Assembly: GCA_002299125.1 (NCBI GenBank)
Contig: DBNU01000061.1
Location: 514 to 64,513 of the forward strand
Source: Proteobacteria bacterium UBA664
GTDB taxonomy: Bacteria > Pseudomonadota > Gammaproteobacteria > UBA7966
Direction: 5' to 3'
Length of the DNA: 64,000 bases
The notes below the pieces were generated by a model that ran no database searches, was not told where the DNA came from, and was given only the letters and a program-made list of their open reading frames with translations. The stretch's first letter is position 1. Each line of letters starts with the position of its first letter. The translations under genes were made by a program, and so were the position numbers. Positions 15,842-47,712 of the stretch are shown here, piece after piece.

Positions 15842-15999
15842 CCGTGACTCCTCAGGCCGCATGCTCTGCTTCCGTTGGCTGGCCCGTCAGTGCCACGAGT
15901 GAACGAGGCCTGGCAGGCTGGATCCTGCGCCAGCCAGCGGTCGATTCAAGCCCCATCGGAGGTCTTCCCCCCAACCTCGCTGGTCGCAAGCGCCTGCTC

Positions 16000-23956: not shown

Positions 23957-24005
23957 GGCTGGCTGCGGCCGGCGGGCGCAGACCCAACCCATGCGATCCG
24001 GCACG

Positions 24006-24815
24006 ATGAACACCACCCTCGAACTGGTCGGGCTGTCCGATACCGGCAGACGGCGCCCCCACAACGAAGACTCCACCGTCATCGACCCCGAGCTCGGATT
24101 GGCCGTGGTTGCGGATGGCATGGGTGGTTACAAGGCCGGCGAACTCGCGAGTGCCATCGCGGTGGTCACGATCTGGACCGAATTGCAGGCCGCCCTGCCA
24201 GGCCTGGCCCCCACCGACCGGAACAGCGAGAGCGGTCGGCTCAGCTTCGGCATCCTGCTGGAACGGGCCATCGACAAGGCCAACCGGCTCATCCATGAAA
24301 CCCAGGAGCGGGAGCAGGAGACCCGCGGCATGGGCACGACGGTGGCCTGCCTGCTCGCCCGTGGCGACCGCCTGGTCATCGCCCACGTGGGTGATTCGCG
24401 CGTCTACCGGCTGCGGGGCGAAGCCCTCGAACGGGTGACCAACGACCACTCGCTCATCCAGGAACTCATCGATCGAGGCTTCTACACCCCGGAAGAGGCA
24501 GCCGAGAACGCACCGAAGAACCTCGTTACGCGCGCACTCGGCATAGAATCCTCAGTGGAGGTGACGATGCGCGAGGAGGCCTGCGTCCCGGGGGAGATGT
24601 TTCTTCTGTGCTCGGACGGCCTCAATGATATGGTTTCCGATGAAGAAATCCGTCTAACCCTGTGTAAGGCTGGCGCTAATCTGCTTGATGCCGCGCGGGA
24701 TTTGGTTAGACTGGCAAACGAAGGTGGTGGGCGCGACAACGTCTCCGTGGTGCTCTGTCGAGTTGGCGGGCACACTGCTCGTCGCGACAGGCCCGATGGG
24801 GTAGTCGCTCGATGA
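24006..24815 (+). CDS. PP2C-family serine/threonine phosphatase (Stp1-like)
   Basis: VADGMGGYKAGELAS...CSDGLNDMV are PPM motifs. The start was set at MNTTLELVGLSD within ORF 23886..24815. Confidence 0.8.
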   Translation: MNTTLELVGLSDTGRRRPHNEDSTVIDPELGLAVVADGMGGYKAGELASAIAVVTIWTELQAALPGLAPTDRNSESGRLSFGILLERAIDKANRLIHETQEREQETRGMGTTVACLLARGDRLVIAHVGDSRVYRLRGEALERVTNDHSLIQELIDRGFYTPEEAAENAPKNLVTRALGIESSVEVTMREEACVPGEMFLLCSDGLNDMVSDEEIRLTLCKAGANLLDAARDLVRLANEGGGRDNVSVVLCRVGGHTARRDRPDGVVAR

Positions 24816-24863: not shown

Positions 24864-25601
24864 ATGGCTAAGCTAGTCCTCAGTCTCAACGGCACCGTCC
24901 AATCCGAGCACCTGCTCGGCAAGGAACGCATCACCATCGGTCGCAAGCCCGACAACGACGTCCAGATCGATAATCTGGCCGTCAGCGGCAAGCACGCACT
25001 GGTTATAACCATCCTCGACGACTCCTTTCTCGAGGATTTGGGCAGCACCAACGGCACCTACGTCAACGGCAAGCTGATCAAGAAGCACGCGCTGCGTAAC
25101 GGCGACGTCATCGGGATCGGCAAGCACGAACTCAAGTACATCAACGAAGCGGCGACCGCGACCGAGGACGACGACTTCGAGGCCACCATCGTCATTCCGC
25201 CGCGCAATGCCTCGGCGGCGCGCGAGGCAGCCCAGGCTGCGGCCCAACAAGGTGCCAGTGCTGCGGGTATCAGCTCTGCAGCGCGGAGTGCAGCCGGGAT
25301 CCCGCCCGTTGCAGCCGCTGCGGGTATGCCCCTCGGGCGCCTGCGGGTCCTGAATGGACCCATCGCCGGGCGCGAGCTCGAACTCACCAAGGCCCTCATC
25401 ACCCTCGGCAAACCGGGCGTGCAGGTGGCCGTGATTTCGCGGCGGCCGCAAGGCTATGTGCTGACACACATCGAGGGCGGCACACCCAACAATTTCCCGA
25501 TCGTGAACGGGCAGCCCATCGGGCCGAATGCCTACCCGCTCAAGGATTCGGACATCATCGAGCTGGCCGGCATCAAGATGGAGTTCTTCCTCTCGCGTTG
25601 A
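24864..25601 (+). CDS. FHA domain-containing protein (two FHA-like domains)
   Basis: The N-terminal FHA is ITIGRKPDNDVQID...GSTNGTYVNG. The C-terminal half is a second FHA-like fold (RVLNGPIAGRELEL...VNGQPIG). The two are separated by an Ala-rich linker. Confidence 0.75.
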   Translation: MAKLVLSLNGTVQSEHLLGKERITIGRKPDNDVQIDNLAVSGKHALVITILDDSFLEDLGSTNGTYVNGKLIKKHALRNGDVIGIGKHELKYINEAATATEDDDFEATIVIPPRNASAAREAAQAAAQQGASAAGISSAARSAAGIPPVAAAAGMPLGRLRVLNGPIAGRELELTKALITLGKPGVQVAVISRRPQGYVLTHIEGGTPNNFPIVNGQPIGPNAYPLKDSDIIELAGIKMEFFLSR

Positions 25602-25668: not shown

Positions 25669-27930
25669 TCACTTCGTCTTGAAGGCGAAGACCCCGGTCC
25701 AGTCCTGACCAGGCGGATTTTGCCGCAACCATGCGCAACGCTCGGCGTACTTCCGGTAAAGCCCCGGATTCTTCGTCTGTTTGACGAGCGTCAGGAACTG
25801 CATCTCGGCCAGGTCCCAATTGCGGTTCCGGTAGTACTCGAGGCCCTGTCGATACACCTTGAGTTCATCCTTGAGCTCCTTCGTGAGTTCCCCCGTGCGG
25901 CAGAGCGGCTCATGAATGGTGACCGACTGCTCCTTGCCCTTCACCTTGACGAGATCGAGCTCCCGGTAAATGAATCCCGGTGCCGCCTTGCGGGTGCTCT
26001 CACTCACGATGATGGAAACGCCGTATTCCTTGGTTAGGCCTTCGAGCCGCGATCCCAGGTTGACCGCGTCACCGAGCACCGTGTAGGCCATGCGAAACTC
26101 GGAGCCCATGTTGCCAACGGACATCTGACCGGTATTGAGTCCGACGCCGATGGAGATCGCCGGCAGCCCCCTGGCGGTGAATTCCGCGGAAAGCTGCTCT
26201 GCACGCCGCACCATCTCCAGTGCCGTCTGCACCGCATGGGTCGCGTGGTCGGGGTCGTCGACCGGAGCACCCCAGAAGGCCATCACGGCATCGCCCATGT
26301 ATTTATCGATGGTGCCGCGATTGGCGTGGATGATGCGCGTCATGGGCGTCAGGAAATCATTGATGAGGCGCGCGAGCTTTGGTGGCGACAGCCCCTCCGA
26401 GATGGAAGTGAAACCGCGAACGTCGGAGAAGAGCACGGTCAGCTCGCGCGATTCCGCTTCCAGGGAGTAGTTCTCCGGGGCACGGGACATCTCATCCACC
26501 AGTTCGGGTGGCACGTACTGGCCGAAGAGGTTGGTGAGCTGGCGCTTGCCCCGGGTCTCCAGGAAGTAGCCATAGGACATCTGCAACACGAACTGCAACG
26601 TCATCATGGCGAGCGGTGATGCGAGCGGCAGCACGAGGCCGTTGCTCCACACCAGGAGGTTGGTGGCAGTGAGCAGCAGCGTGGCGCCGGCATAGGTGGC
26701 CGTCGCCTGTATCGGACTCACCAGGGGCAGGACCAGCGCCAGCAGCAGCCCGGCGAGGGCGAGCATCACCGCCTCGGCACCCAGTACGTAGGCGGGCCGG
26801 GCCTTGATGGCCCCGTCGAGGATGCCGGTGATGAGGTTCGCATGCACCTCGACCCCCGGATAGTTTTCCTGCACGGGCGTTGCCCGCAGGTCGAAAAGGC
26901 CCGGTGCCGTGGTGCCCACCAGCACGATGCGATCGCGCATGAGAGCGGGCGGAAGATCCGCCGCACCCCGCAGCACGTCCGTGGCCGAGACGTAAGTGAA
27001 GCCACCCTGCCGGCTGCGGTAGGGGATGAGGGCCTGGACGTTCTCGTCCACCGGAATGCGATGAGCACCGATCTCCAGCCACTCCAGGCCTGCGTAGGTC
27101 CGACTTGCCCCCCACGGGGCATCCTCGAAGTGCAGGCGGAGTTCCTCGACTCCGAGTGCCGCCTTGGCGATGGCGATGCTGAGGGACTCGTAGTAGTTGC
27201 CCGCGTACTCGTAGAGCATCGGTACCCGGCGTACGATGCCGTCGATGTCCAGTACCGGATTGAAGTGCCCTGCGCCCCGGGCAGCTTGCTGGAAGGCCTC
27301 GAGATTCGCCCCGAAGCCCTGGGCGCGAGCGACGTTCACCCGGCGGCCCTGAAAGCTGCCGGCCACCAGTGTGGGCCGGGGCAGCACGCCCGAGCGCGTG
27401 GCTTCCTCCCGCGCGACCTCCGCGTTGAAGTAGTAGCCGAGCACCACCGGGTAGCGGGCGATGGTGCTGGCGAACAGTCGATCGTGGTCGAGGCTGGGGC
27501 GCAGTAACTCGAGTTGCTCCTTGAATGCCGCATTCCCCGCCAGTTCGTTCCGGGCGAGGCGTTCGAGTTGCGGCAGACCTGAACTCGTATCGGGCTCGGC
27601 AAAGACGATATCGAAGCCGAGCACTGCCGCGCCGTGCACATCGAAGATCCGCTGCACAAGTTCGGCAAGGGTGTCCCGACTCCAGGGCCAGCGGCCTTCC
27701 CGGGCCAGGGAGCGCTCGTCGATGTCCACGATGACGACCCGCGGATCGGTGCCTGACTGCAGACCCGCGAGCACGCGCCAGTCGTAGGTGATGAGTTCCA
27801 GGCGGTCGATGAGGCCCACCTGGACGTAACCGGCCGCGCGCGCGATGGCGAACAGGACGATGACGAGTGACAGGGACACGGGCAGCCAGCGCTCGGCGAG
27901 ACGCTCGCACAGCCGCTCCATCAATCCCAT
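25669..27930 (-). CDS. CHASE2 domain-containing class III adenylate/guanylate cyclase
   Basis: The N-terminus is CHASE2-like (the similar GRWPWSR motif appears in the adjacent CHASE2 kinase). The C-terminal cyclase catalytic domain carries FSDVRGFT, KYMGDAVMAFWGAP and GLNTG. Confidence 0.8.
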   Translation of the reverse strand: MGLMERLCERLAERWLPVSLSLVIVLFAIARAAGYVQVGLIDRLELITYDWRVLAGLQSGTDPRVVIVDIDERSLAREGRWPWSRDTLAELVQRIFDVHGAAVLGFDIVFAEPDTSSGLPQLERLARNELAGNAAFKEQLELLRPSLDHDRLFASTIARYPVVLGYYFNAEVAREEATRSGVLPRPTLVAGSFQGRRVNVARAQGFGANLEAFQQAARGAGHFNPVLDIDGIVRRVPMLYEYAGNYYESLSIAIAKAALGVEELRLHFEDAPWGASRTYAGLEWLEIGAHRIPVDENVQALIPYRSRQGGFTYVSATDVLRGAADLPPALMRDRIVLVGTTAPGLFDLRATPVQENYPGVEVHANLITGILDGAIKARPAYVLGAEAVMLALAGLLLALVLPLVSPIQATATYAGATLLLTATNLLVWSNGLVLPLASPLAMMTLQFVLQMSYGYFLETRGKRQLTNLFGQYVPPELVDEMSRAPENYSLEAESRELTVLFSDVRGFTSISEGLSPPKLARLINDFLTPMTRIIHANRGTIDKYMGDAVMAFWGAPVDDPDHATHAVQTALEMVRRAEQLSAEFTARGLPAISIGVGLNTGQMSVGNMGSEFRMAYTVLGDAVNLGSRLEGLTKEYGVSIIVSESTRKAAPGFIYRELDLVKVKGKEQSVTIHEPLCRTGELTKELKDELKVYRQGLEYYRNRNWDLAEMQFLTLVKQTKNPGLYRKYAERCAWLRQNPPGQDWTGVFAFKTK

Positions 27931-28004: not shown

Positions 28005-28637
28005 TCAGGGCAGCAGGTCCCCGGTGATGATGCCGGCCCGTAGCTCACGCGCCACATCGTTCCATACTTTATCGAACGAATCCGCGAAAGCTTGCACAAC
28101 CGCCTCCACCGAGGCCCCCACCACGACGGGCTGTAACACCTCGAAGCGATGCTGCAGGCGCGCTGCATCCTCCCCAGCCTGTCCCGCCTGAAGATCGATG
28201 GCGACGTGTACCCGGGGCTCGCCGGATCCCACCTCGTGCTCCATGCGCACGATGCGCCCCCGCAGCCAGATCCCGCTGCCGGCCGGGGTGTGATCGGCAG
28301 CAGTGACCTTCCCGGCGATGCCGTGGACGCGCAACCAGTCGGCGAGGTGCTGCTGGAGCAGGCGCGGCGGGGGGTCCACCCAGAAGTGATAGTGCGATTG
28401 CTGCAGGGTCAGATGCGGGGCCGCGGGCGAATAGACGATGGCGCGATCCTGGCGCAGATCATCCGCCTTGAAGGGCAGAACAACGATCTGCGCGATGATC
28501 GGTACGGCGGTCGCCCGGTCGGTTACCGGCAACGGGAGTTGATGGTACTGGGTCTCCGGTACGGGAGGGGCCGTGCCACACGCGCCGAGTGCAACCACAG
28601 TGACCAGAGCGACCGCCCGCCAGAAATGACGCCTCAT
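28005..28637 (-). CDS. ABC-type transport auxiliary lipoprotein (PqiC/YmbA-like, DUF330)
   Basis: It has a signal peptide with lipobox (VALGAC) and is about 210 aa. It sits immediately downstream of the MCE gene with a 4 nt overlap, as pqiC/ymbA-type genes do. Confidence 0.6.
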   Translation of the reverse strand: MRRHFWRAVALVTVVALGACGTAPPVPETQYHQLPLPVTDRATAVPIIAQIVVLPFKADDLRQDRAIVYSPAAPHLTLQQSHYHFWVDPPPRLLQQHLADWLRVHGIAGKVTAADHTPAGSGIWLRGRIVRMEHEVGSGEPRVHVAIDLQAGQAGEDAARLQHRFEVLQPVVVGASVEAVVQAFADSFDKVWNDVARELRAGIITGDLLP

Positions 28638-29653
28638 GGGACGGCACCCTCTGCCCCCCGGGCCGGCCGACTGAACAGTAGCCCGGGCCGCTCGCGCAAC
28701 TGCCTGGAGAACTCGTTCAGGTTGCGGGCCGAACCATCCAGGTTGTGCATGATGGTCCCCATCCGCTCGGCCAGGGTGCCCGATGCCCGCTCGAGCTGGC
28801 CACTTGCCCGGGCCAGACCCGACACCGAAACAGCCACTTCACCACGATTCTCGGCCAGCAGGCCGTGGACATCGCGCAGCACGTCATCCACACCCGCGCG
28901 CGTGGTCGAAAGCTCGGCCGTGAGCTGGTTGAGCCGACCCGAGGTCTGCTCCAGGTGGCTGAGGGCGCGCGTCACGCGCTGCACGTTGGCCGGGTCGAGC
29001 ACTTGCTCCAGCCCGTCGGCCGCCTCGTGCAGGCTCTGCAGCAGCGCCGTGGAGCCCGCGAGCATTTCGCCCAATTGATCGATGCGCGAGCGGCTGCCTG
29101 CGAGCAATGGCCGCAGCTCATCGCGGGACAGTGTCGTCAGTTCCTCGACCAGGGTGCTCAGTTGCTCACGCACGGTGTCCAGCGCCGGGCGGATGCCCTC
29201 GCGCGCGAGCGAGCGGAGCTCCGCGGCTGCCTCGTCGACCACCGCGAAGAGGTTCGCCCGCTCGCGGCCCGGGAGTTCGGCACCGGGGCGCGCGAGGCTC
29301 GTTGCGCTGCCCTCCTCGATCGCGACCGACAGCGCGGCGACGAGGCCGCTGGAGGCGAGGCGCGCGACACTGTCACTGGGTATGGGCCAGTCACTGCGCA
29401 CGGCCAGATGCACCCGGAAGGCCACGTCGCCGGGTGAGAACAGCGGTTCGATGTGACTCACCCGGCCGACCGGGAAACCCTCGAAACTCACCACGGCACC
29501 GTCGCCGAGGCCGCTGACGTCCTGGTAGACCACGCTGTAATGGGTAGTCGGCCCGCTCGCACCCGTCAGCCGATCAAGCACGTACAGCGCCGTTGCCAGC
29601 ATGGCGAGCACGAAGGAGCCGACCAGCAAGTAGTTGACGCGCTCGGATCTCAT
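28634..29653 (-). CDS. MlaD/MCE family protein (outer membrane lipid asymmetry maintenance-like substrate-binding subunit) with extended C-terminal helical region
   Basis: An N-terminal TM anchor and MCE domain (VNYLLVGSFVLAMLATALYVL...YQDVSGLGDGAVVSFEGFPVGRV) are followed by a long Leu/Ala/Arg-rich region. The start was set at MRSERVNYLL; the alternatives are 29671 and 29725. Confidence 0.75.
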   Translation of the reverse strand: MRSERVNYLLVGSFVLAMLATALYVLDRLTGASGPTTHYSVVYQDVSGLGDGAVVSFEGFPVGRVSHIEPLFSPGDVAFRVHLAVRSDWPIPSDSVARLASSGLVAALSVAIEEGSATSLARPGAELPGRERANLFAVVDEAAAELRSLAREGIRPALDTVREQLSTLVEELTTLSRDELRPLLAGSRSRIDQLGEMLAGSTALLQSLHEAADGLEQVLDPANVQRVTRALSHLEQTSGRLNQLTAELSTTRAGVDDVLRDVHGLLAENRGEVAVSVSGLARASGQLERASGTLAERMGTIMHNLDGSARNLNEFSRQLRERPGLLFSRPARGAEGAVP

Positions 29654-29769
29654 CGCCTGATGGTAGGCCATCCGCCCCAGCGGCTTAAGGGCAATTGGCA
29701 GCCACACGCCGATCGGACCGCGCACGGCAAGCCTGCGCTCGGCCCGGATGCAACACCGTCGAAGGACGC

Positions 29770-30600
29770 TCAGGCACGCGTCAGCCGGTCGAGGTAGGCC
29801 TCGGGATCGAAATCCGGAACGCTTGGCTGACGATTGAGCAAGGCCTGGACCCGCGGACTCTGGCTGGCACGCACCTCGGCCACCGTCCCCGTCGCCACGA
29901 TGCGGCCGCCGTCGAGCACGATGAGACGATCCGCGATCGTGAGGGCGCTCTCGATCTCGTGGGTCACGACCACGATGCTCATGTGCATGGCGTCGCGGAG
30001 CTGCAGGATCAGTCGATCGAGTTCGGCCGCGACCACCGGATCCAGGCCCGCACTCGGCTCATCGAAGAAGAGCAGTGGCGGGTCCATCACCACCGCCCGA
30101 GCAATGGCGGCCCGCTTGACCATGCCTCCGGAGAGCTCGGCCGGCAGCAGATCCTCACTACCGGCAAGGTTCACCACCTCGAGCTTGAGTCTGGCCATGA
30201 TGTGCATGGTCGCGGGCGCGAGGCGGGTGTGCTCCTGCAGGGGCAGGATCACGTTCTCCAGCACCGTGAGCGAACTGAACAGCGCCCCGCCCTGGAAGGC
30301 CACCCCCATGTGTCGGCGCAGGCGGTGCATGGCGCGTGCGCTGGCCGTGCGCAAGTCGGTGCCGAGTACTTCCACCCGGCCGGCGGTCGGCCGCGCAAGC
30401 CCCACGAGGTGGCGCAGCAAGGTGCTCTTGCCCGAGCCGCTGCCGCCCATGATGACGACGATTTCACCCGACCCCACCTGCAGGCTGATGTCATGCAGCA
30501 CCTGCCGCTCGCCCCAGTGCGCAGCAAGCCCTTCGACCGCGATCACCGTACTGCCCGGCACCAGCCGGTGCGCGTCGTCCCGGTCGAACAGTCCGCTCAT
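29770..30600 (-). CDS. ABC transporter ATP-binding protein (MlaF-like)
   Basis: It has Walker A (GGSGSGKST), the ABC signature (LSGGMVKRAA) and Walker B (LLFFDEP). The start is at the internal ATG (MSGLFDRDD). Confidence 0.85.
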   Translation of the reverse strand: MSGLFDRDDAHRLVPGSTVIAVEGLAAHWGERQVLHDISLQVGSGEIVVIMGGSGSGKSTLLRHLVGLARPTAGRVEVLGTDLRTASARAMHRLRRHMGVAFQGGALFSSLTVLENVILPLQEHTRLAPATMHIMARLKLEVVNLAGSEDLLPAELSGGMVKRAAIARAVVMDPPLLFFDEPSAGLDPVVAAELDRLILQLRDAMHMSIVVVTHEIESALTIADRLIVLDGGRIVATGTVAEVRASQSPRVQALLNRQPSVPDFDPEAYLDRLTRA

Positions 30601-31394
30601 CACCCCGGACGGCTCATGAGCCAGGTGAAGATCATGTCGGCCACCACGATGTAGGACAGGCTCTGCACCACGGCCCGGGTCGTGGCACGCCCGACCCCAT
30701 CGGCCCCGCCGGTCACGGCAAAGCCGTTGCTCACGCCCACCAGCGCGATGATGATGCCGAAGGTCAAGCCCTTGCCCAGCCCCTGCAGGACATCCGCCAC
30801 CTGCAGGATGGCGAAGGTCTGGGCGATGAAGGCCTCGAAGGACAACCCCAGCACCTGGTTGCAGTACACCGCCGAACCGGCCAGGGCAGCGACACTGGAC
30901 AGCACCGTCAGACACGGCACCATCACGATGGCCGCCACCAGTGGCGGTGCCACCAGATGCCGCACCGGACTGATGCCCATCACGGCCAGTGCGTCCACCT
31001 CCTGCGAGATCTGCATGGCACTGATGCGCGCGGCGAGAGCAGATCCGGAACGACCGGCCACCATGATGCCGCTGATGAGTGCACCGAATTCACGCGTGAT
31101 CGACAGCACCAGGGCCATGACCACCTGGGATTCGGCGCCGAAGGCCTTGAGCGAATACACGCCCTGGATGGCGAGCATCACGCCGACGGAGAAGGACAGC
31201 ACACTCAGGATCGGCACGGCGGCGAGGCCGATCGCCACCAGCTCGTTCAGGATGAGTCGCGCATGCACCGGCTGTCGCAGGAAGGGCCCGAAGAGGAGCC
31301 ACCACAGCGACTCGACCAACAGGCTCGCGCAATAGCCGATCTCCTCGACCAGCACCCGGGCGAGCGACGGCCGCGGGGCGCCGCTGCGTGACAT
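30600..31394 (-). CDS. ABC transporter permease (MlaE-like)
   Basis: About 264 aa with multiple TM segments. The length and the MlaE-like conserved core (…GALISGIMVAGRSGSALAARISAMQISQEVDAL…) match MlaE. The alternative start is 31424. Confidence 0.8.
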   Translation of the reverse strand: MSRSGAPRPSLARVLVEEIGYCASLLVESLWWLLFGPFLRQPVHARLILNELVAIGLAAVPILSVLSFSVGVMLAIQGVYSLKAFGAESQVVMALVLSITREFGALISGIMVAGRSGSALAARISAMQISQEVDALAVMGISPVRHLVAPPLVAAIVMVPCLTVLSSVAALAGSAVYCNQVLGLSFEAFIAQTFAILQVADVLQGLGKGLTFGIIIALVGVSNGFAVTGGADGVGRATTRAVVQSLSYIVVADMIFTWLMSRPG

Positions 31395-31407
31395 GAACGG
31401 ACGGGCT

Positions 31408-31731
31408 TCAACCCTTGCCATCACTGCCGGTTGCGATCGGAAATACCCGATCCAGGCGCGCCAGCCGGAGCACGCTCAAGGCCGCCTCGCTCACCTCCGT
31501 GAGTTGGAAGTCTAGGCCGAGCTTGCGGGCAAGCTGGTAGGCCTCCACGAGGCTTGCGACACCCGAGCTGTCAATGTAGCTGACGGCCGCCATGCGCACA
31601 CTGACCGCGTGTCCTGCCCGGAGCTGCGCGAGCAGCGCGCTGCGCACGGTCTGGGAGCAGGAGAGGTCGATGTCTCCCTCCAGCGCGACGGTGGCGTGAT
31701 CCTCGACCAGGGTGGTCTGCGGTGTCGTCAT
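31408..31731 (-). CDS. STAS domain protein (anti-sigma factor antagonist, RsbV/SpoIIAA-like)
   Basis: The 107 aa product has the STAS pattern (VALEGDIDLSCSQTVRSAL...VSYIDSSGVASLVEA) and a conserved phosphorylatable Ser region (DSSG). It overlaps the upstream kinase by 4 nt. Confidence 0.7.
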   Translation of the reverse strand: MTTPQTTLVEDHATVALEGDIDLSCSQTVRSALLAQLRAGHAVSVRMAAVSYIDSSGVASLVEAYQLARKLGLDFQLTEVSEAALSVLRLARLDRVFPIATGSDGKG

Positions 31732-32180
31732 CGAGCGTCCCCCACCGGTTGCGCCGCGCCGCGCAGCCGCTTCAGCATGCGCAGCCAATTGCCATTCCCG
31801 CCTGCGCTGTGGCCGTAGCAGGACTCGTCCATCAAGGTGCGGATGAAATGGGTGCCCAGCCCACCCGGGCGGAGGTCATCGAGGGCCCGCGGACAGATGC
31901 GACTGAAATCCACCGGCGGCGCGAAGTCCTCCAGCAGCACTTCGATGCAGCCCGCATTATTTCCGATGTGCAGAACGATTTCACCGTCGTCGCAACCGGC
32001 GTAGGCATGCTGGATGACGTTCATGCAGGCCTCGTTGACGGCCAGGACGATGTCGGCGGCCTCGTCCTCAGCACAACCCAGCCCCAGCGTCGCAGACCGC
32101 ACGTGGGCGCGGATGGTGCGGAGGTTCTCCGGGCAGGCCTTCATGCGCCAGCTCGACACGGTCGGGGTGGACAGGCTCAT
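31728..32180 (-). CDS. anti-sigma regulatory factor serine protein kinase (RsbW/SpoIIAB-like HATPase_c)
   Basis: About 150 aa with an N-box (EACMNVIQHA) and a G-box (PGGLGTHFIRTLMDE). It is flanked by a PP2C phosphatase and a STAS protein, each with a 4 nt overlap. Confidence 0.75.
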   Translation of the reverse strand: MSLSTPTVSSWRMKACPENLRTIRAHVRSATLGLGCAEDEAADIVLAVNEACMNVIQHAYAGCDDGEIVLHIGNNAGCIEVLLEDFAPPVDFSRICPRALDDLRPGGLGTHFIRTLMDESCYGHSAGGNGNWLRMLKRLRGAAQPVGDAR

Positions 32181-33445
32181 CGGGGTGCCTCGAGCACGAG
32201 CACCGTGAGGTCGTCGCTCCAGTACGCCCCATTGTTGCGCAGGCATTCCACCAGTCGCGGCAATCGCAATCCAAGTGGCTCGGCCGCGACCAGCTCGAGC
32301 CAATGCGAAAGCCCATCGAGCCCCAGCGGTCGCCCCTTCAACCGGGCTTCGAGCAGGCCGTCGCTGTAGAGGTAGAGCGCCCCATCCGCGAGCGCGAGCT
32401 GTCGGGTCGGACAAGCGAGATCCGGCTCGATGCCGAGCGGCGGCGCGTCGCATTCCAGCACCTCCCAGGCCCCCGAGCGACGGTGCAGCAGGGCCGGTGG
32501 ATGGCCGGCGTTCGCCAGCCTCACCTCGCCGCTCTGCAGATCGAGCAGGCCGACCACGACGGTCACGAACATGCCCCGCGTGGCCGTCTGGAAGATCTCG
32601 CGGTTGACCCGCGCGAGCAGTTCCGAGGGGTCATCGATGCTACGGGCGAGACAGCGCAGGAGCCCGCAGGTCTGGGCCATCAACAGCGCGGCGTTCATGC
32701 CCTTGCCAGAGACATCCCCGATGCTGAAATAGCAGTGGTGCGCGCCGACCGGCTGGAAATCGAAGAAGTCCCCGGAGACGCCATCGGCCGCGAGGTTGAG
32801 TCCGGCGACCGGCAGACCGGTATCCGGATCGGGCAGGAGCCGCTCCTGGATCTCGCGGGCCAGATGCAGCTCGCGCCGAATGCGGTCGCGCTCCACCAGC
32901 GCGACGGTGGTGCGCGCATTGCGCACCGCCATGGCCGCAGCCGAGGCGAACATGCTGAGGAGATATTGATCGCGACTGCCGAAGAGCCCATCCGCGCTGC
33001 GCTTGTTGATGCACTCGACCGCACCGAGACATTCGTCCGCCAGCAGCAGCGGGGCACAGAGCAGCGAGCGGGTCTCGAAGCCCGTGCCGGCATCCACGGA
33101 GGCGGCGAAATCGGGATGTGCGCGCACATCCCGCACCATGAGGCAGCTCTTCTCCCGGACCGCGCGCCCGACGATGCCGTACCGTGCATCGATGCGCAGC
33201 CCCCGGATATCGACCGGGCCGACACAATCGCGACAGCGCAGGATGCGATCATCATCCTCGAGGAAGAAGATCGACGCCGCCTCGGCATCCAGGTGCGCCG
33301 CAATCCGCAGCAGCGCCGTGCGCAGCGTGGCGTCGAGATTGAGCGTACGGGCGAAACCGTCGGCCAGCTCGGCGAACAGCGCCGCCTGCGCCTCCAGCTC
33401 GGTCGCCCGCGCCGCCACCGGCGGTGCTTCGATCTCGCCATCCAT
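32177..33445 (-). CDS. GAF domain-containing PP2C/SpoIIE-type serine phosphatase (RsbU-like)
   Basis: An N-terminal GAF-like region is followed by a C-terminal SpoIIE/PP2C domain (GDVSGKGMNAALLMAQ...LYSDGL). The start is at the internal ATG (MDGEIEAPP). Confidence 0.8.
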   Translation of the reverse strand: MDGEIEAPPVAARATELEAQAALFAELADGFARTLNLDATLRTALLRIAAHLDAEAASIFFLEDDDRILRCRDCVGPVDIRGLRIDARYGIVGRAVREKSCLMVRDVRAHPDFAASVDAGTGFETRSLLCAPLLLADECLGAVECINKRSADGLFGSRDQYLLSMFASAAAMAVRNARTTVALVERDRIRRELHLAREIQERLLPDPDTGLPVAGLNLAADGVSGDFFDFQPVGAHHCYFSIGDVSGKGMNAALLMAQTCGLLRCLARSIDDPSELLARVNREIFQTATRGMFVTVVVGLLDLQSGEVRLANAGHPPALLHRRSGAWEVLECDAPPLGIEPDLACPTRQLALADGALYLYSDGLLEARLKGRPLGLDGLSHWLELVAAEPLGLRLPRLVECLRNNGAYWSDDLTVLVLEAPR

Positions 33446-33553: not shown

Positions 33554-33970
33554 TCAGCCAAGCCCTCGCCACGCCGCGAGCAGTGCCTGCGGATCCGGTG
33601 CCCGGCCCGCGCGGGCAGCCGCAAGGAGCTCTTCGTGAAGGCCCTCCAGCAGGGCGTGCTCGGCGTCCATGGGCGCGACACCGCGTGCCAGCAGTTGCTC
33701 CAGCGCGCTCCGTGCGCCGGGCGGGTGGTCGGCCCCCACCGCCTCGCGCACGGCCACGTGCAGGGACAGGTGCAGGAAGATCGCACTGCAGCCGGCATCG
33801 TCGCGCACGAGGAGTTCCGGATCGGCCAGCAGGTCATGGCACTCCGGATGCGCCGCCACGACGTCTGCAACCAGCGCCTGCAGCGGCGTCAGCACGTGGC
33901 CTGCCCGCGCGGCCGCCCAGGCATCGCGGAAGAAGGCACGCACCTCCCCGGGGCTCGATGGGTTCAACAT
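33554..33970 (-). CDS. DUF1841 family protein
   Basis: The 138 aa product resembles the DUF1841 family, recalled from memory. It overlaps the nth stop by 7 nt. Confidence 0.45.
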   Translation of the reverse strand: MLNPSSPGEVRAFFRDAWAAARAGHVLTPLQALVADVVAAHPECHDLLADPELLVRDDAGCSAIFLHLSLHVAVREAVGADHPPGARSALEQLLARGVAPMDAEHALLEGLHEELLAAARAGRAPDPQALLAAWRGLG

Positions 33971-36328: not shown

Positions 36329-39079
36329 CTACCCTGTCCATGCCGTCGTCATCAACACCACGAAATCCCGGCGCGACAGCACGGCCGTGCAGTCGCGCCA
36401 GTCCTTGTCGGGCGGTGCCATCGTGGCGGTGTAGCGAAGGTCGAAGCCGGTCGCCTCGCGCTGGGCGTCGATGTACTCGTCCATCTTCAGGCCCAGTGCC
36501 TCGATGTCGGCTATCCACTCGTCCTTGATGGTGTCCGGGACGGAACCGAACAGGTCGTAGCGGTCGCGCATGCGGTCCGAGAGGCGGTCGTAGATCTTCT
36601 CGTCGACGGTCTGCTCGTTGACCAGGTTGAGCATATCCACGGTGTCGCGCTTCTGGCCGAAGCGCTTGATGCGACCGATGCGCTGTTCGAGCCGAGTCGG
36701 GTTCCAGGGGAGATCGACGTTCACCAGCGTGCCCAGGGTCTGCAGGTTCAGGCCCTCGCAGGCGGCGTCCGTGGCCACCATGATCCGGATCTGGTGCTCG
36801 GCCACCCTCTTCTTGAGCGTCTCGCGTTCGCAAGACACGCTGTCGCCGCGCTGGTAGAGCCGGCTGCGGCCGGCACCGGCGTACAGACCAATCGCTTCGT
36901 CCGGGTAGCGCCGGGCGAGCTGCTCCACCACCCAGCGCGCGGTGTCGTAGTACTGGCTGAAGATGATCACACCCAGATCCAGCCACTTCTCGCGGGCCAG
37001 GTAGTACAGCAGTGCCGCCAGCTTGGGGTCGGACTCGATCCGCTCCAGCCGGTTCAGCAGCCGTTCCAGGGCCTCGCGCTCTTCGCCCGTTTCAACGGCC
37101 AGTTCTGCGTCGCCCTCTTCTTCCTCGTCGCGCAGGGTCTGGCCCTGCAGCAGCGCTCGCACGGTGTTCAGCCCGGCGTGGATCGACGAGCAGATGCGCT
37201 GCTCGACCAGGTTCTTCATGAACCCGCCGCCGCCCCCGCGACCCTGGCCACGCGCGCTCAACGCCTTGCCGAAGGCGCGTGCCTCACGGTACGCCTCGCG
37301 AAAGTCGTCGCTGGTGCGCAGGGCCTTGGCCTCGAACAACGCATCGAAGCCCTGGGGCTCGCGGACGAGCTGCCGATCGGGATGCACGTCCACGCCCACC
37401 CGTGCCAGCAGGCCGGCGTCCTCCAGGCTGACACGCTTGCGCAGCACCACGTGGCGCACCAGGGGGTTCTCGCGCTGGAAGAAGGTGGCGCCGGACACCT
37501 GACGGTGCAGTTCGTCTTCCAGGATCTCGCGCGTGTCCTCGCTCAGGTCGGCCAGCGACCGGGCGGTCTGGGTCTCGTCGTTCACCAGTCCCAGATCCTG
37601 GCGGATCGCGCTGAACAGCCGTCTTGCGCGCGGTTCGCGTGTGGAGTCCACCAACGGCAGCGGGGACCGCAGCAGCTCCCACGCATGTTCGGCCGAGGTC
37701 ACCTCCTGCCGGCCCGACAGAATCTCCAGCACCTCGCCAGCCCGGTGCCAGGCTGCGAAGTCGTTGCCCAGCACGAAGTTGCCGCGCCCCTGGTGCAGGA
37801 TGCCGATCAGGTCCCACAGGTCCTGCGGTTGGGTCTGGATGGGCGTCGCCGTGCCCAGCAACACATGCTCGGATCGGGCCGCGATCTCGCGCATGAAGGC
37901 CAGCAGTTCGTTCGGCGTGCCCGCGTCGGTGCCGAAGCCCTGCCGCGTGCGGGCCTTGTGCGCCTCGTCCAGGATCACCAGGCCAAAGCGCAGGCCCAGC
38001 AGATGCTGCTTCTCGGCCGACTGACGCATCATCAGCCCGGTCGAGACGATGCCGATGCGCAGCGGGCAGCGCGCGATGTGCTCGCGGCCGGCAGGCGAGA
38101 TGGCCCGTTCCTGGTCATCGAGCCAGACCTTGCGCACGGTGTCCCAGCGCGCGCACGGGATGCCCAGCTTGTCCAGCATCTCGGTCTGCCACTGCTCGCA
38201 CAGCGTGGCCGGGGCGAAGATCACCACCGGCCGCCGGGCTTGCTGCTCACGGTCGGCCAGCAGGCACAGCGTCAGCGCCGCGGTGCCGAGCGACAGCGTC
38301 TTGCCCAGGCCTACCTCGTCGGCCAGCAGCAGGCGCACCACCCTGTGCATCTGGTGGTGGCGCAGGCACTCGGTCACGAAGCCTTGCTGCCACGGCTGCA
38401 GCGCCAGGCCCTCGCGGTACAGCGGCGACTCGATCAGCGCGGCCGGCGCCACGTCGTCAACGCCCTCGATCTCATCGAACACCACCTCGCGGCGGTAGCC
38501 ACGCCGGTGCACCTCACGGATCACGGCCTCGGGCAGCGGGCGCGCGACGTTCCACAGGAAGTCGAACTCGCTCTCGATCCAGGCCACACCTTCGGGCGAC
38601 TCGTCTTCCCACAGGATCTCGTAGTGGCGCTGCCAGCCGCTGCGGGTCTCGTTCATCGAGCCGATGAAGCCCAGCCTGCGCCCATCGGCCAGATCGATGA
38701 CGCCGGCCTTGCCGTGCACGAAGCCGCACACGCTGTCGGGCGCCACGCGCACCGCCTGGCCGTGCCGCTGCAGGAAGGCATCCAGCCGGCGGTAGCGGTC
38801 GCGGTTCAGCAGTGCCTCGGCCTCGATGGCACCCTCGTTCCAGCGGCCCAGCATGCGGGCCTCGCGCAGTTGAGCCACCTTCAGGTCGTCGGGGTGGATG
38901 TCGACGTTGCACACGATGCGGACGTGCGGAATGCCTTCCAGCAGCTCGTGCGCCACCTCGAACAGCGAGCTGGTGAAGTAGCCCGCGATGCGCCGGTAGC
39001 TGCGCGCGCCCTGCAGGTGCTCCAGCAGAAAGCTGGCGTCCAGCCGGTGCGTGCGTGACGAGAAGCGCCGAATCGACAC
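36329..39079 (-). CDS. SNF2-family helicase with N-terminal phospholipase D-like (HKD) nuclease domain
   Basis: The HKD motif is FVHGKAGVIDLADGRRLGFIGSMNET. SNF2 motif I is LLADEVGLGKTL, motif II is LDEAHKAR, and helicase C motif VI is QRIGRIKRFGQ. It is the last gene of the co-directional island. Confidence 0.85.
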   Translation of the reverse strand: MSIRRFSSRTHRLDASFLLEHLQGARSYRRIAGYFTSSLFEVAHELLEGIPHVRIVCNVDIHPDDLKVAQLREARMLGRWNEGAIEAEALLNRDRYRRLDAFLQRHGQAVRVAPDSVCGFVHGKAGVIDLADGRRLGFIGSMNETRSGWQRHYEILWEDESPEGVAWIESEFDFLWNVARPLPEAVIREVHRRGYRREVVFDEIEGVDDVAPAALIESPLYREGLALQPWQQGFVTECLRHHQMHRVVRLLLADEVGLGKTLSLGTAALTLCLLADREQQARRPVVIFAPATLCEQWQTEMLDKLGIPCARWDTVRKVWLDDQERAISPAGREHIARCPLRIGIVSTGLMMRQSAEKQHLLGLRFGLVILDEAHKARTRQGFGTDAGTPNELLAFMREIAARSEHVLLGTATPIQTQPQDLWDLIGILHQGRGNFVLGNDFAAWHRAGEVLEILSGRQEVTSAEHAWELLRSPLPLVDSTREPRARRLFSAIRQDLGLVNDETQTARSLADLSEDTREILEDELHRQVSGATFFQRENPLVRHVVLRKRVSLEDAGLLARVGVDVHPDRQLVREPQGFDALFEAKALRTSDDFREAYREARAFGKALSARGQGRGGGGGFMKNLVEQRICSSIHAGLNTVRALLQGQTLRDEEEEGDAELAVETGEEREALERLLNRLERIESDPKLAALLYYLAREKWLDLGVIIFSQYYDTARWVVEQLARRYPDEAIGLYAGAGRSRLYQRGDSVSCERETLKKRVAEHQIRIMVATDAACEGLNLQTLGTLVNVDLPWNPTRLEQRIGRIKRFGQKRDTVDMLNLVNEQTVDEKIYDRLSDRMRDRYDLFGSVPDTIKDEWIADIEALGLKMDEYIDAQREATGFDLRYTATMAPPDKDWRDCTAVLSRRDFVVLMTTAWTG

Positions 39080-39083
39080 CGGT

Positions 39084-40505
39084 TCAGTGCCCCGGCCTCA
39101 CGCCGCCCTTGCGTCCGAGGCCGAAGCCCACACGGTATAGATCAGGCATGTCGACGCAGCCATCCTTCTTCATCTCCATCAGCCCTAGGCGTTGCAGGTC
39201 CTCGCGAAGCCCATCCCATCCGCGAGCCTGCGCGGGGAGTCGATCTGAAGGAATGCTCTGAGGTCCATCGGGAAATCTTGCGGACCAACGCGCCACGACC
39301 GCTTCGAATTCACCAGGGACGTTCATCCCTTTGAGCTCTGACAGCACTTCAGGAATCCACTGATAGTCCTCAGCAATTTCCTGAACACGAATCTCCGAGG
39401 CCTTCTGGATACCCCGTTTGATGCTCTCGTAATGCAGCGCGAACACATGCTCTGCATGGCGTTCAGCGGAATCCTCGGCGCTCTTCCGAATTGCAGCAAG
39501 GAACGAGCGGGGGGAGGTACGGCCTTGACCGTCGGCCAAATGGCTGACGGACCACGTATACGGTACTCCCCGTCGCTTGTCGCGACCCATCCACGGGCCC
39601 GCCAGACGCTCGAAGGCCTTGCGCTGCGCTTCCGATTCGATCTTCATTTCATCAGCAACGCGCCAGGTTCCTTGCTGATCACTGTGAGCGCACAGGGCAC
39701 GCATACGCTCGCCATGTACGGCGGGTGCATTGATCAAGCGTTGCCAGAGCAGCCCGTGCAAATCGTGGCGAGCCCAAGTCAATTCGGCCTTGGTCGCAGT
39801 GAGCTTGGAGGCATCGGGAAAGTTGAACACCGTGCGTTCAGCTTGGTCCTCCCGAAGGAAGACCTTGCCGTAGAGCCCGGGGAAGGACTTCAGCCAAAGG
39901 ATGGCCCGCAATAATCCACGTACGATCTCGTCCATCCGTTGCCAGATGCTGCTGGTGCGGTCCAGCGCGTCAAAGACGACAAGGCAACGCGGGTGTCTGG
40001 GCAGTTGCATCAGCCGTGCGGCCCCCTCGGGGTCGGACTTGAGCCAGGCAACCGTCTCGCCCCAGTCCTGGCAGGGAACTCTCTGACCGGACATATCTGC
40101 CACCCATCGAAGGATCACTGCACGCCACAAGTCATATGGATCACCGTCATGGTCCAGGAATGTCGCGAACACGTCGGCATTTGGGTAATTTGCGATGTTC
40201 TCGGTATTGGCGAAACCGAGCCTGACGGCGGCACCGGTGAGTTCGGATGCTCCGCTCCCCAGGAGCAGCCGCAACGAATCCAACTGCAAAGCAGCCGTCC
40301 AGAAGGACTTTCCCACGCCGCGGCCGCCGACGACGACATGCGCATCAAGACGCAGCGCCTTCAGGTGCGACGGCGGGACGTAGAGCAGCCCTGGCTCCGG
40401 TGTCTCGCCGAAACTGCTGGTCTCGAGCGGTGCGGCAAGAATGGCTGCCCGCAAGGCTTGAGCTTCCGTCAGGTTCTCAGTCATGGAGTATCCCCCTGAC
40501 TCCAT
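39084..40505 (-). CDS. uncharacterised P-loop NTPase (Walker A GGRGVGKS; candidate Walker B LVVFDALD)
   Basis: 473 aa. I recognise no family. It is tightly coupled to its neighbours, 4 nt from the SNF2 start and overlapping the ParA-like stop. Confidence 0.45.
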   Translation of the reverse strand: MESGGYSMTENLTEAQALRAAILAAPLETSSFGETPEPGLLYVPPSHLKALRLDAHVVVGGRGVGKSFWTAALQLDSLRLLLGSGASELTGAAVRLGFANTENIANYPNADVFATFLDHDGDPYDLWRAVILRWVADMSGQRVPCQDWGETVAWLKSDPEGAARLMQLPRHPRCLVVFDALDRTSSIWQRMDEIVRGLLRAILWLKSFPGLYGKVFLREDQAERTVFNFPDASKLTATKAELTWARHDLHGLLWQRLINAPAVHGERMRALCAHSDQQGTWRVADEMKIESEAQRKAFERLAGPWMGRDKRRGVPYTWSVSHLADGQGRTSPRSFLAAIRKSAEDSAERHAEHVFALHYESIKRGIQKASEIRVQEIAEDYQWIPEVLSELKGMNVPGEFEAVVARWSARFPDGPQSIPSDRLPAQARGWDGLREDLQRLGLMEMKKDGCVDMPDLYRVGFGLGRKGGVRPGH

Positions 40506-45204: not shown

Positions 45205-45213
45205 GTGGCGGCT

Positions 45214-45456: not shown

Positions 45457-45459
45457 GGC

Positions 45460-46932: not shown

Positions 46933-46956
46933 CGGCTCACCTCTGCTTCCTCGTCT

Positions 46957-47661: not shown

Positions 47662-47712
47662 AGAGCGCTCCCTCGGGGGGCAGCGAGCGAGAGCGAGCTT
47701 GGGGGTCTCATG

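Follow-up and report, generated by a model that had tools for sequence, protein, structure and literature searches.

A partner-switching-type gene cluster linked to an MCE-family ABC transporter in a gammaproteobacterial genome

The Mla transporter of Escherichia coli, MlaFEDB, carries a STAS-domain subunit, MlaB (Thong 2016, PMC5016091; Kolich 2020, PMC7367683). The C-terminal extension of the E. coli ATPase MlaF wraps around the partner subunit, docking at the MlaF-MlaB interface, with ATPase dimerisation proposed as its main role, and Thr52 of MlaB lies at the centre of this interface, where the phosphomimetic mutation T52E weakens MlaF binding (PMC7367683). The idea that MlaB is regulated by phosphorylation was raised in 2020 and is still an open question (PMC7367683); no kinase or phosphatase is known for it. 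STAS-MlaE (DUF140) fusion proteins also exist, and mce-like operons with DUF330 lipoproteins have been described in Gram-negative bacteria (Casali and Riley 2007, PMC1810536).

In the Bacillus subtilis partner switches RsbU-RsbV-RsbW/sigma-B and SpoIIE-SpoIIAA-SpoIIAB/sigma-F, overlapping genes in one operon encode three components: a PP2C phosphatase that carries an N-terminal input domain, a serine kinase of the GHKL type and a STAS antagonist whose phospho-site reads DS(S/T)G. Partner-switching-like modules with outputs other than a sigma factor have been reported for Anabaena, where the module acts directly on an envelope-biosynthesis enzyme (HenR/All4160 glycosyltransferase; 2026, PMC13555669), and for Vibrio fischeri (SypE/SypA; PMC10120452, PMC4517449). 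Our literature search returned no described ABC transporter under partner-switch control, nor the cluster presented here. This cluster occupies positions 28005-33445 of a 64-kb window, the whole stretch of DNA that was analysed, and we favour, with modest confidence and on the strength of sequence comparisons, the reading that it encodes a partner-switching-type phospho-switch whose output would be an MCE-family ABC transporter and not a sigma factor.

Gene content and junctions of the cluster

All seven open reading frames of the cluster lie on the minus strand, and their Pfam families match the domain content given in a preliminary description of the locus (Table 1). The 4-nt overlaps claimed there between phosphatase, kinase and STAS genes are borne out by an ATGA at both junctions, and the 13-nt spacing between the STAS stop and the MlaE start was likewise confirmed from the sequence. 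Overlaps of 1-4 nt had also been claimed for the transporter genes; these exist at the MlaE/MlaF junction (1 nt with an ATG start, 4 nt with a GTG start) and at the MCE/lipoprotein junction (again ATGA), but not between MlaF and MCE, where a gap of 44-116 nt is found that varies with the chosen start codon. The phosphatase start at 33445 is backed by a GGAGGA located 6 nt before the ATG.

Table 1. Genes of the cluster and the adjoining cyclase gene, with positions in the 64-kb window
Product	Length (aa)	Position	Strand	Matches
GAF-PP2C (SpoIIE-family) serine phosphatase	422	32177..33445	-	SpoIIE 2e-41, GAF 3.5e-15
RsbW/SpoIIAB-like GHKL serine kinase	150	31728..32180	-	HATPase_c_2 8e-25, full model
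Single-domain STAS protein	107	31408..31731	-	Pfam STAS 1.4e-14
MlaE-family ABC permease	264	30600..31394	-	Pfam MlaE 1e-63
MlaF-clade ABC ATPase	276	29770..30600	-	ABC ATPase 4.7e-31; best PDB matches MlaF
MCE (MlaD-family) protein	~339-363	28634..29671	-	Pfam MlaD 2.8e-11, residues 42-121
PqiC/YmbA-like (ABC_trans_aux, DUF330) lipoprotein	210	28005..28637	-	ABC_trans_aux 8.2e-6
CHASE2-domain class III adenylate cyclase	753	25669..27930	-	CHASE2 3.2e-63, Guanylate_cyc 8.6e-22

As in the B. subtilis switches, the operon has overlapping genes for a PP2C phosphatase, whose input domain is N-terminal, for a GHKL serine kinase and for a STAS protein with the phospho-site motif. The order phosphatase-kinase-STAS-transporter, however, differs from the order antagonist-kinase-sigma in B. 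subtilis, and a sigma gene is absent from the operon, the window and the related loci. None of the about 57 predicted genes of the window carries a Sigma70 or Sigma54 Pfam domain, and six-frame tblastn searches of the window with RpoE, SigB and RpoD regions 2-4 returned nothing below E=1. Sigma genes were also missing from 165 related loci by tblastn and from the Pfam-annotated flanks of related loci. The earlier claim that no sigma factor lies nearby thus holds across the 64-kb window by both methods.

Switch and transporter proteins

The metal-binding motifs of the phosphatase (DVSGKG, (S/T)DG and DD.T) are kept across 88 orthologues, and the enzyme is predicted to dephosphorylate the STAS protein. 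The kinase, which retains its N-box (EAC.N..QH.Y) and an RPGGLG motif across 81 orthologues, is predicted to phosphorylate Ser55 of the STAS protein, the predicted phospho-acceptor. Within the STAS family, 31 columns are invariant in an alignment of 29 sequences, and the YIDSSG motif is invariant as well. The STAS protein scores above the cut-off of the TIGR00377 anti-sigma-factor antagonist model (60.1 versus 53.45 bits), and its PDB profile matches are led by TM1442 (1.9e-19), with RsbV and SpoIIAA, while MlaB reaches only 4e-4. An AF2 model (pLDDT 89.7) has RsbV as its best fold match (TM 0.87-0.94, superposing at 1.3 Å), compared with TM 0.56-0.66 for MlaB. By sequence and predicted fold, the protein is therefore classed as an RsbV/SpoIIAA-type antagonist with a distant likeness to MlaB. 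In an hhalign comparison with E. coli MlaB (probability 89%), S55 lies opposite T52, so that both proteins carry a Ser or Thr at the same position, the start of helix 2. In contrast to MlaB, the STAS protein is encoded upstream of the transporter.

These properties also suit a classical partner switch, in which the RsbW-like kinase would be an anti-sigma (or anti-X) factor holding a regulator encoded elsewhere, dephosphorylated STAS protein would free that regulator, and the transporter genes would merely be co-transcribed or members of the regulon. The best structural match of the STAS protein is RsbV in complex with RsbW, the weak best NCBIfam matches of the kinase are RsbW and SpoIIAB, and the targets of partner switches in Gram-negative bacteria are often unlinked (HsbA/FlgM, CrsR/RpoS). 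We nevertheless regard this explanation as unlikely. Sigma genes are absent from the window and the related loci, the kinase, unlike RsbW itself, falls far under the RsbW equivalog cut-off (53 versus 145 bits), and two arrangements described below, in which the STAS family precedes mlaB-less mlaFEDC operons or pairs with a lone MlaF-clade ATPase, would be left unexplained.

The transporter resembles E. coli MlaFEDB in its permease of the MlaE family, its MlaF-type ATPase and its MCE-domain protein, and in the small STAS protein encoded beside them. The permease lies barely above the cut-off of the NCBIfam MlaE family TIGR00056 (213.6 versus 212.2 bits) and misses the MlaE exception model (147.6 versus 315); its PDB matches are MlaE of P. 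aeruginosa (111 bits) and of E. coli (96 bits). The best PDB match of the ATPase is A. baumannii MlaF (203 bits, 42% identity), aligned through the extreme C-terminus and joined by MlaF of P. aeruginosa and of E. coli (41% identity), while the NCBIfam MlaF equivalog is missed (204.5 versus 441). Like E. coli MlaF, the ATPase contains the LSGGM signature and is extended at its C-terminus, here by ~25 conserved residues that end in Y(L/M)xRLT. The pattern R(I/V)QxLLNRRp....D.d.Y(L/M)xRLT is kept in 58/58 orthologues, and the AF2 model shows, at low confidence, a coil (256-265) followed by a helix (266-274). By analogy with E. coli MlaF, this extension may serve only in ATPase dimerisation.

The MCE protein has an N-terminal membrane anchor and one MCE domain, followed by ~200 residues that are probably helical. 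It matches the MCE family TIGR00996 best among NCBIfam models (82.7 bits) and misses the MlaD equivalog (47.7 versus a cut-off of 135). The lipoprotein carries a signal peptide plus Cys (…LGAC) and a marginal ABC_trans_aux score (25.9 versus a cut-off of 26 bits), and its orthologues in five related loci (L001, L003, L166, L172, L174) are clear members of that family. With MlaC and MlaA absent, a long MCE tail and a PqiC-like lipoprotein, the transporter of the window is a non-canonical Mla system. In layout it resembles the ATPase-permease-MCE clusters with a DUF330 (ABC_trans_aux) lipoprotein surveyed in PMC1810536; that survey leaves an accompanying kinase or phosphatase unmentioned, and the cluster here has a separate STAS protein with an intact phospho-site. 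The STAS-MlaE fusions (PMC1810536) likewise tie a STAS domain to an MlaE-type permease, and they provide a precedent for the proposed link between a STAS protein and an Mla-type transporter.

Conservation of the linkage

The STAS family is present in >583 species-level genomes, and record titles assign the loci to Alpha-, Beta- and Gammaproteobacteria, to a Myxococcota MAG and to MAGs that bear the label Marinimicrobia. We counted upstream genes in 120 related loci and downstream layouts in the 101 non-redundant loci whose sequence extends 3.7 kb or more 3' of the STAS gene. A kinase lies upstream of the STAS gene in 119/120 loci and a PP2C phosphatase in 112, a near-constant company that sets this STAS protein apart from MlaB. 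An Mla-type transporter lies directly 3' of the STAS gene in 84/101 loci. Most of these (75 loci) have the layout of the window, STAS-MlaE-MlaF-MCE-PqiC-like lipoprotein, and the gene order proposed for a synteny check in other genomes does therefore recur. The same order turns up independently in well over 100 loci, far more than chance would give, and because the flanking genes differ between lineages, the cluster moves as a unit.

Nine loci have the canonical mlaFEDC order (STAS-MlaF-MlaE-MlaD-MlaC), usually with kinase and phosphatase accompanying the STAS gene, and none of the nine has a STAS-sized open reading frame after mlaC, the usual place of mlaB. A third layout is represented by one locus (L106), where kinase-STAS-MlaF stand alone and are followed by an unrelated convergent gene. 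L075, one of the nine mlaFEDC loci, has a permease close to the canonical type, which scores 183 bits against P. aeruginosa MlaE (111 for the window permease), yet its ATPase belongs to the clade of the window ATPase (56-66% identity and the same tail, compared with 41-42% identity to E. coli and A. baumannii MlaF). One ATPase clade is co-inherited with the STAS family across the three layouts. We propose, on these grounds, that the STAS protein is a regulatory subunit of the transporter. The linkage with an Mla/MCE transporter, together with the absence of a sigma factor, suggests an on-off control of the transporter by phosphorylation.

Some observations bear against this proposal. No transporter adjoins the STAS gene in 16/101 loci, which keep PP2C-kinase-STAS and are closely related to transporter-linked loci (PP2C proteins 80-90% identical), and their STAS proteins retain every conserved position; the transporter may therefore be encoded elsewhere, or the switch may have another target, as the classical partner switch would have it. 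A sigma factor or a different target may also be encoded at a distance that a 64-kb window does not reach. All seven proteins do co-vary (r 0.58-0.89), and the residual co-variation of the STAS protein is strongest with MlaE (partial r 0.53), which speaks for the proposal. Within the main layout, however, its residual co-variation with the ATPase is about zero, so that this test does not single out the ATPase as the STAS contact. The preliminary description had inferred phospho-control of a lipid or envelope ABC transporter in place of a sigma factor, and the comparisons bear this out in part. The conserved linkage, the mlaB-less mlaFEDC operons, the lone MlaF, the MlaF-type tail, the S55/T52 alignment and the lack of sigma genes speak for that inference, and the transporter-less loci, the RsbV-like STAS protein and the non-canonical transporter speak against it.

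The same linkage would also fit a reversed flow of information, in which the transporter would be the sensor: the STAS protein would leave the ATPase depending on transport flux or lipid load and engage the kinase, and the switch would report envelope lipid status to cAMP signalling, gene expression or a similar output. Flux-sensing ABC transporters are known (Bce type), and the cluster lies amid CHASE2 signalling proteins, namely the adenylate cyclase and a Ser/Thr kinase that has FHA and PP2C proteins as partners. We give this direction little credence, as the phosphatase bears its own sensory domain, which argues for signal entry at that point, and no conserved downstream output gene is found beyond one gammaproteobacterial clade. 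This domain varies (GAF in the window, HDOD in L174), and L001 and L172 encode phosphatase and kinase as one fused protein, while STAS protein and transporter are unchanged in all of these loci; a changing input with a constant output favours the reading in which the switch acts on the transporter.

Cyclic-nucleotide input and the proposed mechanism

The best PDB matches of the phosphatase GAF domain are cNMP-binding GAF domains, with PDE2A GAF-B (6e-18) followed by PDE5, PDE10 and CyaB2, and its NK-x(5-6)-F-x3-D motif is conserved. These matches mark it as a GAF domain of the cyclic-nucleotide-binding type. The CHASE2 cyclase gene begins 74 nt 3' of the lipoprotein gene on the same strand, and no terminator-like site was seen between the two. 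Its best PDB matches are Cya2 and P. aeruginosa CyaB, and the window protein has a Lys (IDKYMGD) where the wild-type guanylate cyclase Cya2 has a Glu. We infer that this cyclase is a probable source of the signal sensed by the GAF domain. Neither the GAF type nor the downstream cyclase figured in the preliminary description.

In the mechanism that we favour, in which the switch acts on the transporter, the protein-protein contacts, the phosphorylation, the sign of regulation, the GAF ligand and the transporter substrate are all inferred. The kinase would add phosphate to Ser55, and binding of a cyclic nucleotide to the GAF domain would cause the phosphatase to strip it; the likely ligand would be cAMP from the neighbouring cyclase, which itself would sense a cue from the envelope or periplasm. 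Unphosphorylated STAS protein would dock on the transporter from its cytoplasmic side, in the way that MlaB docks on MlaF in E. coli, contacting the helical subdomain of one ATPase and the C-terminal tail of its partner, and would thereby permit transporter assembly or ATPase activity. Phosphorylated STAS protein could not dock, and transport would be off. In the transporter itself, MlaE2-MlaF2 would be joined by a hexameric MCE ring that bears a helical tube and by the PqiC-like outer-membrane lipoprotein, and its cargo would presumably be lipids or other hydrophobic molecules that pass between the two membranes. Such a cycle of STAS kinase and PP2C phosphatase controlling a non-sigma target would parallel the Anabaena and Vibrio fischeri modules, from which it would differ in that the presumed target is an ABC transporter.

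The CHASE2 neighbourhood also raises the alternative that the switch serves cAMP signalling, for example with the STAS protein or the kinase controlling the cyclase, and that the Mla-like cassette is a passenger in some lineages. A CHASE2 adenylate cyclase adjoins in 24 loci, in 15 after the whole cluster and in nine directly after the STAS gene; these nine are among the 16 transporter-less loci, and in the other seven, with neither cyclase nor transporter, the STAS gene abuts the convergent FHA/PP2C/CHASE2-kinase genes. The presence of the cassette varies among close relatives, and the GAF type would fit a cAMP circuit. Even so, we hold this alternative to be quite improbable. Where present, the cassette always lies directly after the STAS gene and never between kinase and STAS, and the transporter occurs without the cyclase in 60/75 main-layout loci, which are alphaproteobacterial, betaproteobacterial or from other Gammaproteobacteria. 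The CHASE2 neighbours are limited to one gammaproteobacterial clade, in which a DUF1841 gene lies upstream as well.

Gene content and conservation of the cluster

The seven genes lie on the minus strand of a window with a G+C content of ~68%, and the preliminary description of their arrangement is confirmed. All seven claimed products are borne out by Pfam, the ATGA of the 4-nt phosphatase/kinase and kinase/STAS overlaps can be read in the sequence at both junctions, and the 13-nt spacer between the STAS and MlaE genes is likewise present. The transporter genes had been described as overlapping throughout. This holds for MlaE and MlaF (1 nt with an ATG start or 4 nt with a GTG start) and for the MCE and lipoprotein genes (ATGA), whereas the ATPase and MCE genes are separated by a gap of 44-116 nt, the sole factual error in that observation. 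A promoter and terminator scan gave an output no better than shuffled sequence, so the argument for co-transcription is one of gene spacing alone.

Features of the window and their positions
Feature	Position	Strand	Evidence or remark
PemK/MazF-like toxin	7962-8306	-	short ORF just upstream (pair spans 7962-8526)
GAF-HD_5 protein (HD-GYP-like)	14204-15862	-	beside htpG
CHASE2-domain Ser/Thr kinase	21443-23956	+
PP2C	23886-24815	+
FHA protein	24864-25601	+
CHASE2 class III cyclase	25669-27930	-
ABC_trans_aux lipoprotein	28005-28637	-	Pfam 8.2e-6, marginal in window
MlaD/MCE protein	28634-29671	-	Pfam 2.8e-11
ABC ATPase	29770-30600	-	Pfam 4.7e-31
MlaE permease	30600-31394	-	Pfam 1e-63
STAS protein	31408-31731	-	Pfam 1.4e-14
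HATPase_c_2 kinase	31728-32180	-	Pfam 8e-25
GAF + SpoIIE/PP2C phosphatase	32177-33445	-	Pfam SpoIIE 2e-41, GAF 3.5e-15
DUF1841 protein	33554-33970	-	immediately upstream of phosphatase gene
Defence-type island	36329-51207	-	PADLOC matches
PLD_Helicase	36329-39079	-
Candidate system PDC-M28 C/B/A	39084-42254	-
DUF1156 methyltransferase	42247-45204	-
Fic-like_C + PIN toxin	45214-45882	-	PIN-domain part 45460-45882; 110-aa ORF upstream (pair spans 45460-46192)
DUF3780	46957-47661	-
DUF499 ATPase	47713-51207	-

Relatives of the STAS protein occur in more than 583 species-level genomes, and the family is unusually conserved, 31 columns being invariant across 29 diverse sequences. We fetched 80 genome and 80 metagenome loci, placed nine window proteins on them by tblastn, and counted layouts in those 101 non-redundant loci whose sequence extends 3.7 kb or more past STAS. 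The window layout (STAS-MlaE-MlaF-MCE-lipoprotein) was present in 75, STAS-MlaF-MlaE-MlaD-MlaC in nine, STAS with a CHASE2 cyclase as the very next gene in nine and kinase-STAS-MlaF alone in one; seven had none of these after STAS. Upstream of STAS, the kinase was found in 119 of 120 loci and the PP2C phosphatase in 112. The counted loci are drawn from the closest relatives and are phylogenetically non-independent, and the STAS-MlaF-MlaE-MlaD-MlaC layout is enriched in the metagenome scan, because a STAS sequence of that layout served as the reference for ranking. Independent gene calls and Pfam place the same unit in very unlike neighbourhoods, for instance in Caenispirillum salinarum and in three MAGs (Ectothiorhodospiraceae, Legionellales and alphaproteobacterial), where the spacing of STAS and MlaE varies between an overlap of 14 nt and a gap of 43 nt. 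At least one carrier, C. salinarum (GCA_000315795.1), has been cultured.

The phosphatase is the variable part of the unit. It is fused to the kinase (557-578 aa) in two related loci, L001 (6267-7940) and L172 (7275-9011), and carries an HDOD domain in place of GAF in a third, L174 (6880-8571); the STAS protein and the transporter are constant in all three despite these changes. The protein P0137 (424 aa), at first taken for a fusion, proved to be an internal duplication.

The switch proteins and their candidate input

By sequence and predicted fold, the STAS protein belongs with the RsbV-type antagonists and is only remotely MlaB-like. Its profile matched TM1442 at 1.9e-19 as against 4e-4 for MlaB, and its AF2 model (pLDDT 89.7) gave TM-scores of 0.87-0.94 to RsbV from the RsbV/RsbW complex as against 0.56-0.66 to MlaB. 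The protein also passes TIGR00377. The YIDSSG motif shows no variation in sets of 29 and 84 family members, and S55, the predicted site of action of the kinase and phosphatase, is located at the start of helix 55-71 of the model. In the kinase, the Pfam HATPase_c_2 match covers the full length, and the N-box and an RPGGLG motif are conserved; the G1 box reads D-F-A and differs from DxGxG, and the protein scores below the NCBIfam cut-offs for the RsbW equivalogs. The phosphatase joins an N-terminal GAF domain to a SpoIIE domain whose catalytic Asp motifs are kept in 88 orthologues.

The GAF domain returned cyclic-nucleotide-binding GAF domains as its best PDB matches, with PDE2A GAF-B first (6e-18), followed by PDE5, PDE10 and CyaB2. 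The motif NK-x(5-6)-F-x3-D is kept across the 88 orthologues, and the final E of NKFDE is Q in the window. A CHASE2 class III cyclase is encoded 74 nt downstream of the cluster on the same strand. Among proteins of known structure it is most closely related to Cya2 and CyaB, and a Lys takes the place of the Glu of the guanylate cyclase Cya2, which in class III cyclases points to cAMP as the product. In the clade that carries the cyclase, the phosphatase would have cAMP from this neighbour as its ligand. In 15 loci the cyclase comes after the cluster, and in nine directly after STAS. The switch could be read as part of a CHASE2/cAMP module in which the transporter cassette is a passenger; we regard this as improbable.

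On the plus strand, a CHASE2-domain Ser/Thr kinase, a PP2C and an FHA protein face the cyclase, so that two CHASE2 sensors with different outputs are neighbours beside the switch. This set is also found in L001, and ORFs matched in size and orientation abut STAS in relatives that have no transporter. The second GAF protein of the window, fused to HD_5, may likewise take part in nucleotide-second-messenger signalling in this neighbourhood.

The transporter as a proposed target of the switch

The transporter departs from the canonical Mla system. The ATPase and MlaE have Mla subunits as their best PDB matches, and among the NCBIfam models the MlaE family model was barely passed (213.6 vs 212.2 bits), while the MlaE exception model (147.6 vs 315), the MlaF equivalog (204.5 vs 441) and, for the MCE protein, the MlaD equivalog (47.7 vs 135) were missed. 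MlaE, and MlaF with its LSGGM signature and C-terminal extension, thus resemble the Mla system at the family level only. In contrast to that system, there is no short MlaD, the MCE protein having ~200 extra C-terminal residues, and a PqiC-like lipoprotein is present where MlaC and MlaA, whose domains Pfam did not find among the window genes, are missing. The lipoprotein (ABC_trans_aux/DUF330) scores 25.9 vs 26 bits in the window and is clear in orthologues. Compared to PqiABC, the cluster lacks PqiA, has a single MCE domain where PqiB has several, and possesses an ABC ATPase and permease.

The ATPase ends in a tail of ~25 residues, R(I/V)QxLLNRRp....D.d.Y(L/M)xRLT, which is conserved in 58/58 orthologues and can be aligned to that of A. 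baumannii MlaF. In E. coli MlaF, such an extension wraps the partner subunit, and its terminal helix (Tyr261, Leu265, Leu266) enters the MlaF-MlaB groove (PMC7367683). The AF2 model of the ATPase is of moderate quality only (pLDDT 69.5) and served solely to assign secondary structure to the tail. When the ATPase was modelled alone, its catalytic core was confident, and the helical subdomain (104-155), which in E. coli MlaF is the place where MlaB binds, fell below a pLDDT of 50 together with the tail; the alignment was shallow and this may mean nothing.

In nine loci the STAS gene, usually with the kinase and PP2C, stands ahead of an mlaFEDC operon of canonical order, and no STAS-sized ORF was found after mlaC, the usual place of mlaB, in these loci. 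At one of them, L075, the permease is canonical-like (183 bits to P. aeruginosa MlaE vs 111 for the window permease); its ATPase is no nearer to canonical MlaF than that of the window and belongs to the same clade, members of which are 56-69% identical in both layouts vs 41-42% to E. coli or A. baumannii MlaF. Another locus, L106, carries a lone kinase-STAS-MlaF trio (4973-6702) followed by a convergent gene for an unrelated CitMHS transporter; neither a permease nor an MCE gene lies in the vicinity. Taken with the window layout, these loci indicate that the STAS family accompanies one ATPase clade on three chassis. The mlaFEDC-linked STAS and ATPase sequences form no single clean clade in NJ trees, and we therefore make no claim of a single origin.

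Like MlaB, the STAS protein is encoded next to the transporter, and S55 lies opposite MlaB Thr52 in a profile alignment (the MlaB sequence used agrees with the coordinates of the PDB match), although the match itself is remote. Thr52 occupies a central position where MlaF and MlaB meet, and the phosphomimetic T52E weakens binding; whether MlaB is phosphoregulated, and by which enzyme, was posed as an open question (PMC7367683). In a mirror-tree test of 43 loci all seven proteins co-vary, and the partial correlations of STAS peak at 0.53 for MlaE, with a value of ~0 for MlaF, which is weak evidence for coupling of STAS to the transporter and does not single out the ATPase. We assign little probability to a reading in which the transporter is the sensor; the phosphatase has a GAF domain of its own.

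Sixteen loci keep the switch without an adjacent transporter. Like the RsbV-type character of STAS, its missing residual correlation with MlaF and the departures from canonical Mla, they speak against the transporter as target. Their PP2C is 80-90% identical to that of transporter-linked relatives, their STAS is unchanged at every conserved position, and no STAS residue was found that distinguishes the two groups, hence there is no interface signature. Here STAS abuts the convergent FHA, PP2C and CHASE2-kinase genes that the window also contains. A search for a relocated cassette in these genomes with the MlaF of L011, a related locus, turned up no such cassette in a database that may lack them, and the one gene context inspected showed the standard layout only. 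Either the transporter lies elsewhere in the genome or the switch acts on a second target.

The latter bears on the possibility that the target is a remote sigma factor or another regulator. The cluster shares with the RsbU/V/W and SpoIIE/AA/AB partner switches a STAS antagonist with DS(S/T)G, a GHKL kinase and a sensory PP2C, but differs from them in that no sigma factor was found in the window or in 165 related loci. That none lies nearby, as had been noted previously, agrees with the Pfam count of zero sigma-factor domains in ~57 predicted window genes and with the lack of any match in a six-frame tblastn of the window using three sigma factors; the tblastn search over the 165 loci, likewise without a match, covered these loci only and leaves room for a distant target. 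We consider a regulator of this kind unlikely. A partner switch that acts on the transporter, as originally suggested, is the best-supported reading from comparative genomics and is, on balance, probable.

In such a mechanism, cAMP from the CHASE2 cyclase, or another input, would set the phosphorylation state of the STAS protein, and this state would turn inter-membrane lipid transport on or off post-translationally. More tentatively, and with somewhat less than even likelihood, this may be the first natural case in which a partner-switching phospho-relay gates an ABC transporter, with STAS as the MlaB equivalent and enterobacterial MlaB as a degenerate descendant without kinase and phosphatase. 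Such a descent would account for the conserved and unexplained Thr52. A full-text literature search found no description of partner switching (RsbU/RsbW) combined with an Mla, MCE or ABC transporter, and a review of STAS-only proteins mentions neither Mla nor ABC transporters. The closest precedents comprise MlaB itself, the STAS-MlaE fusions described in 2007 (PMC1810536) and partner-switching-like modules whose output is not a sigma factor, one of which, from 2026, targets a glycosyltransferase (PMC13555669).

The findings bear on the regulation of MCE/Mla lipid transporters, to which the question of MlaB phosphorylation, raised with the MlaFB structure, belongs (PMC7367683). The gene family offers a candidate kinase and phosphatase, a Thr52-equivalent site and a plausible signal, which hundreds of species encode together with the transporter, and with a cultured carrier at hand the question becomes directly testable. 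If confirmed, ABC transporters would join the short list of non-sigma partner-switching outputs, and cyclic-nucleotide signalling would be tied to outer-membrane lipid homeostasis.

Other genes in the window

Upstream of the cluster, the G+C content falls to 0.615-0.65 in the defence-type island. In L001 and in L166, a further related locus, nth directly adjoins the MetG/Fer4 or Rnf genes of the flank, and together with the drop in G+C this makes the island look like an insertion; no tRNA gene was found in the window. The DUF1841 gene has the same position after nth in ~35 of the 83 genome loci, and every one of these belongs to a single gammaproteobacterial clade. A toxin gene of the PemK/MazF type, paired with a short ORF, lies apart from the island near the start of the window.
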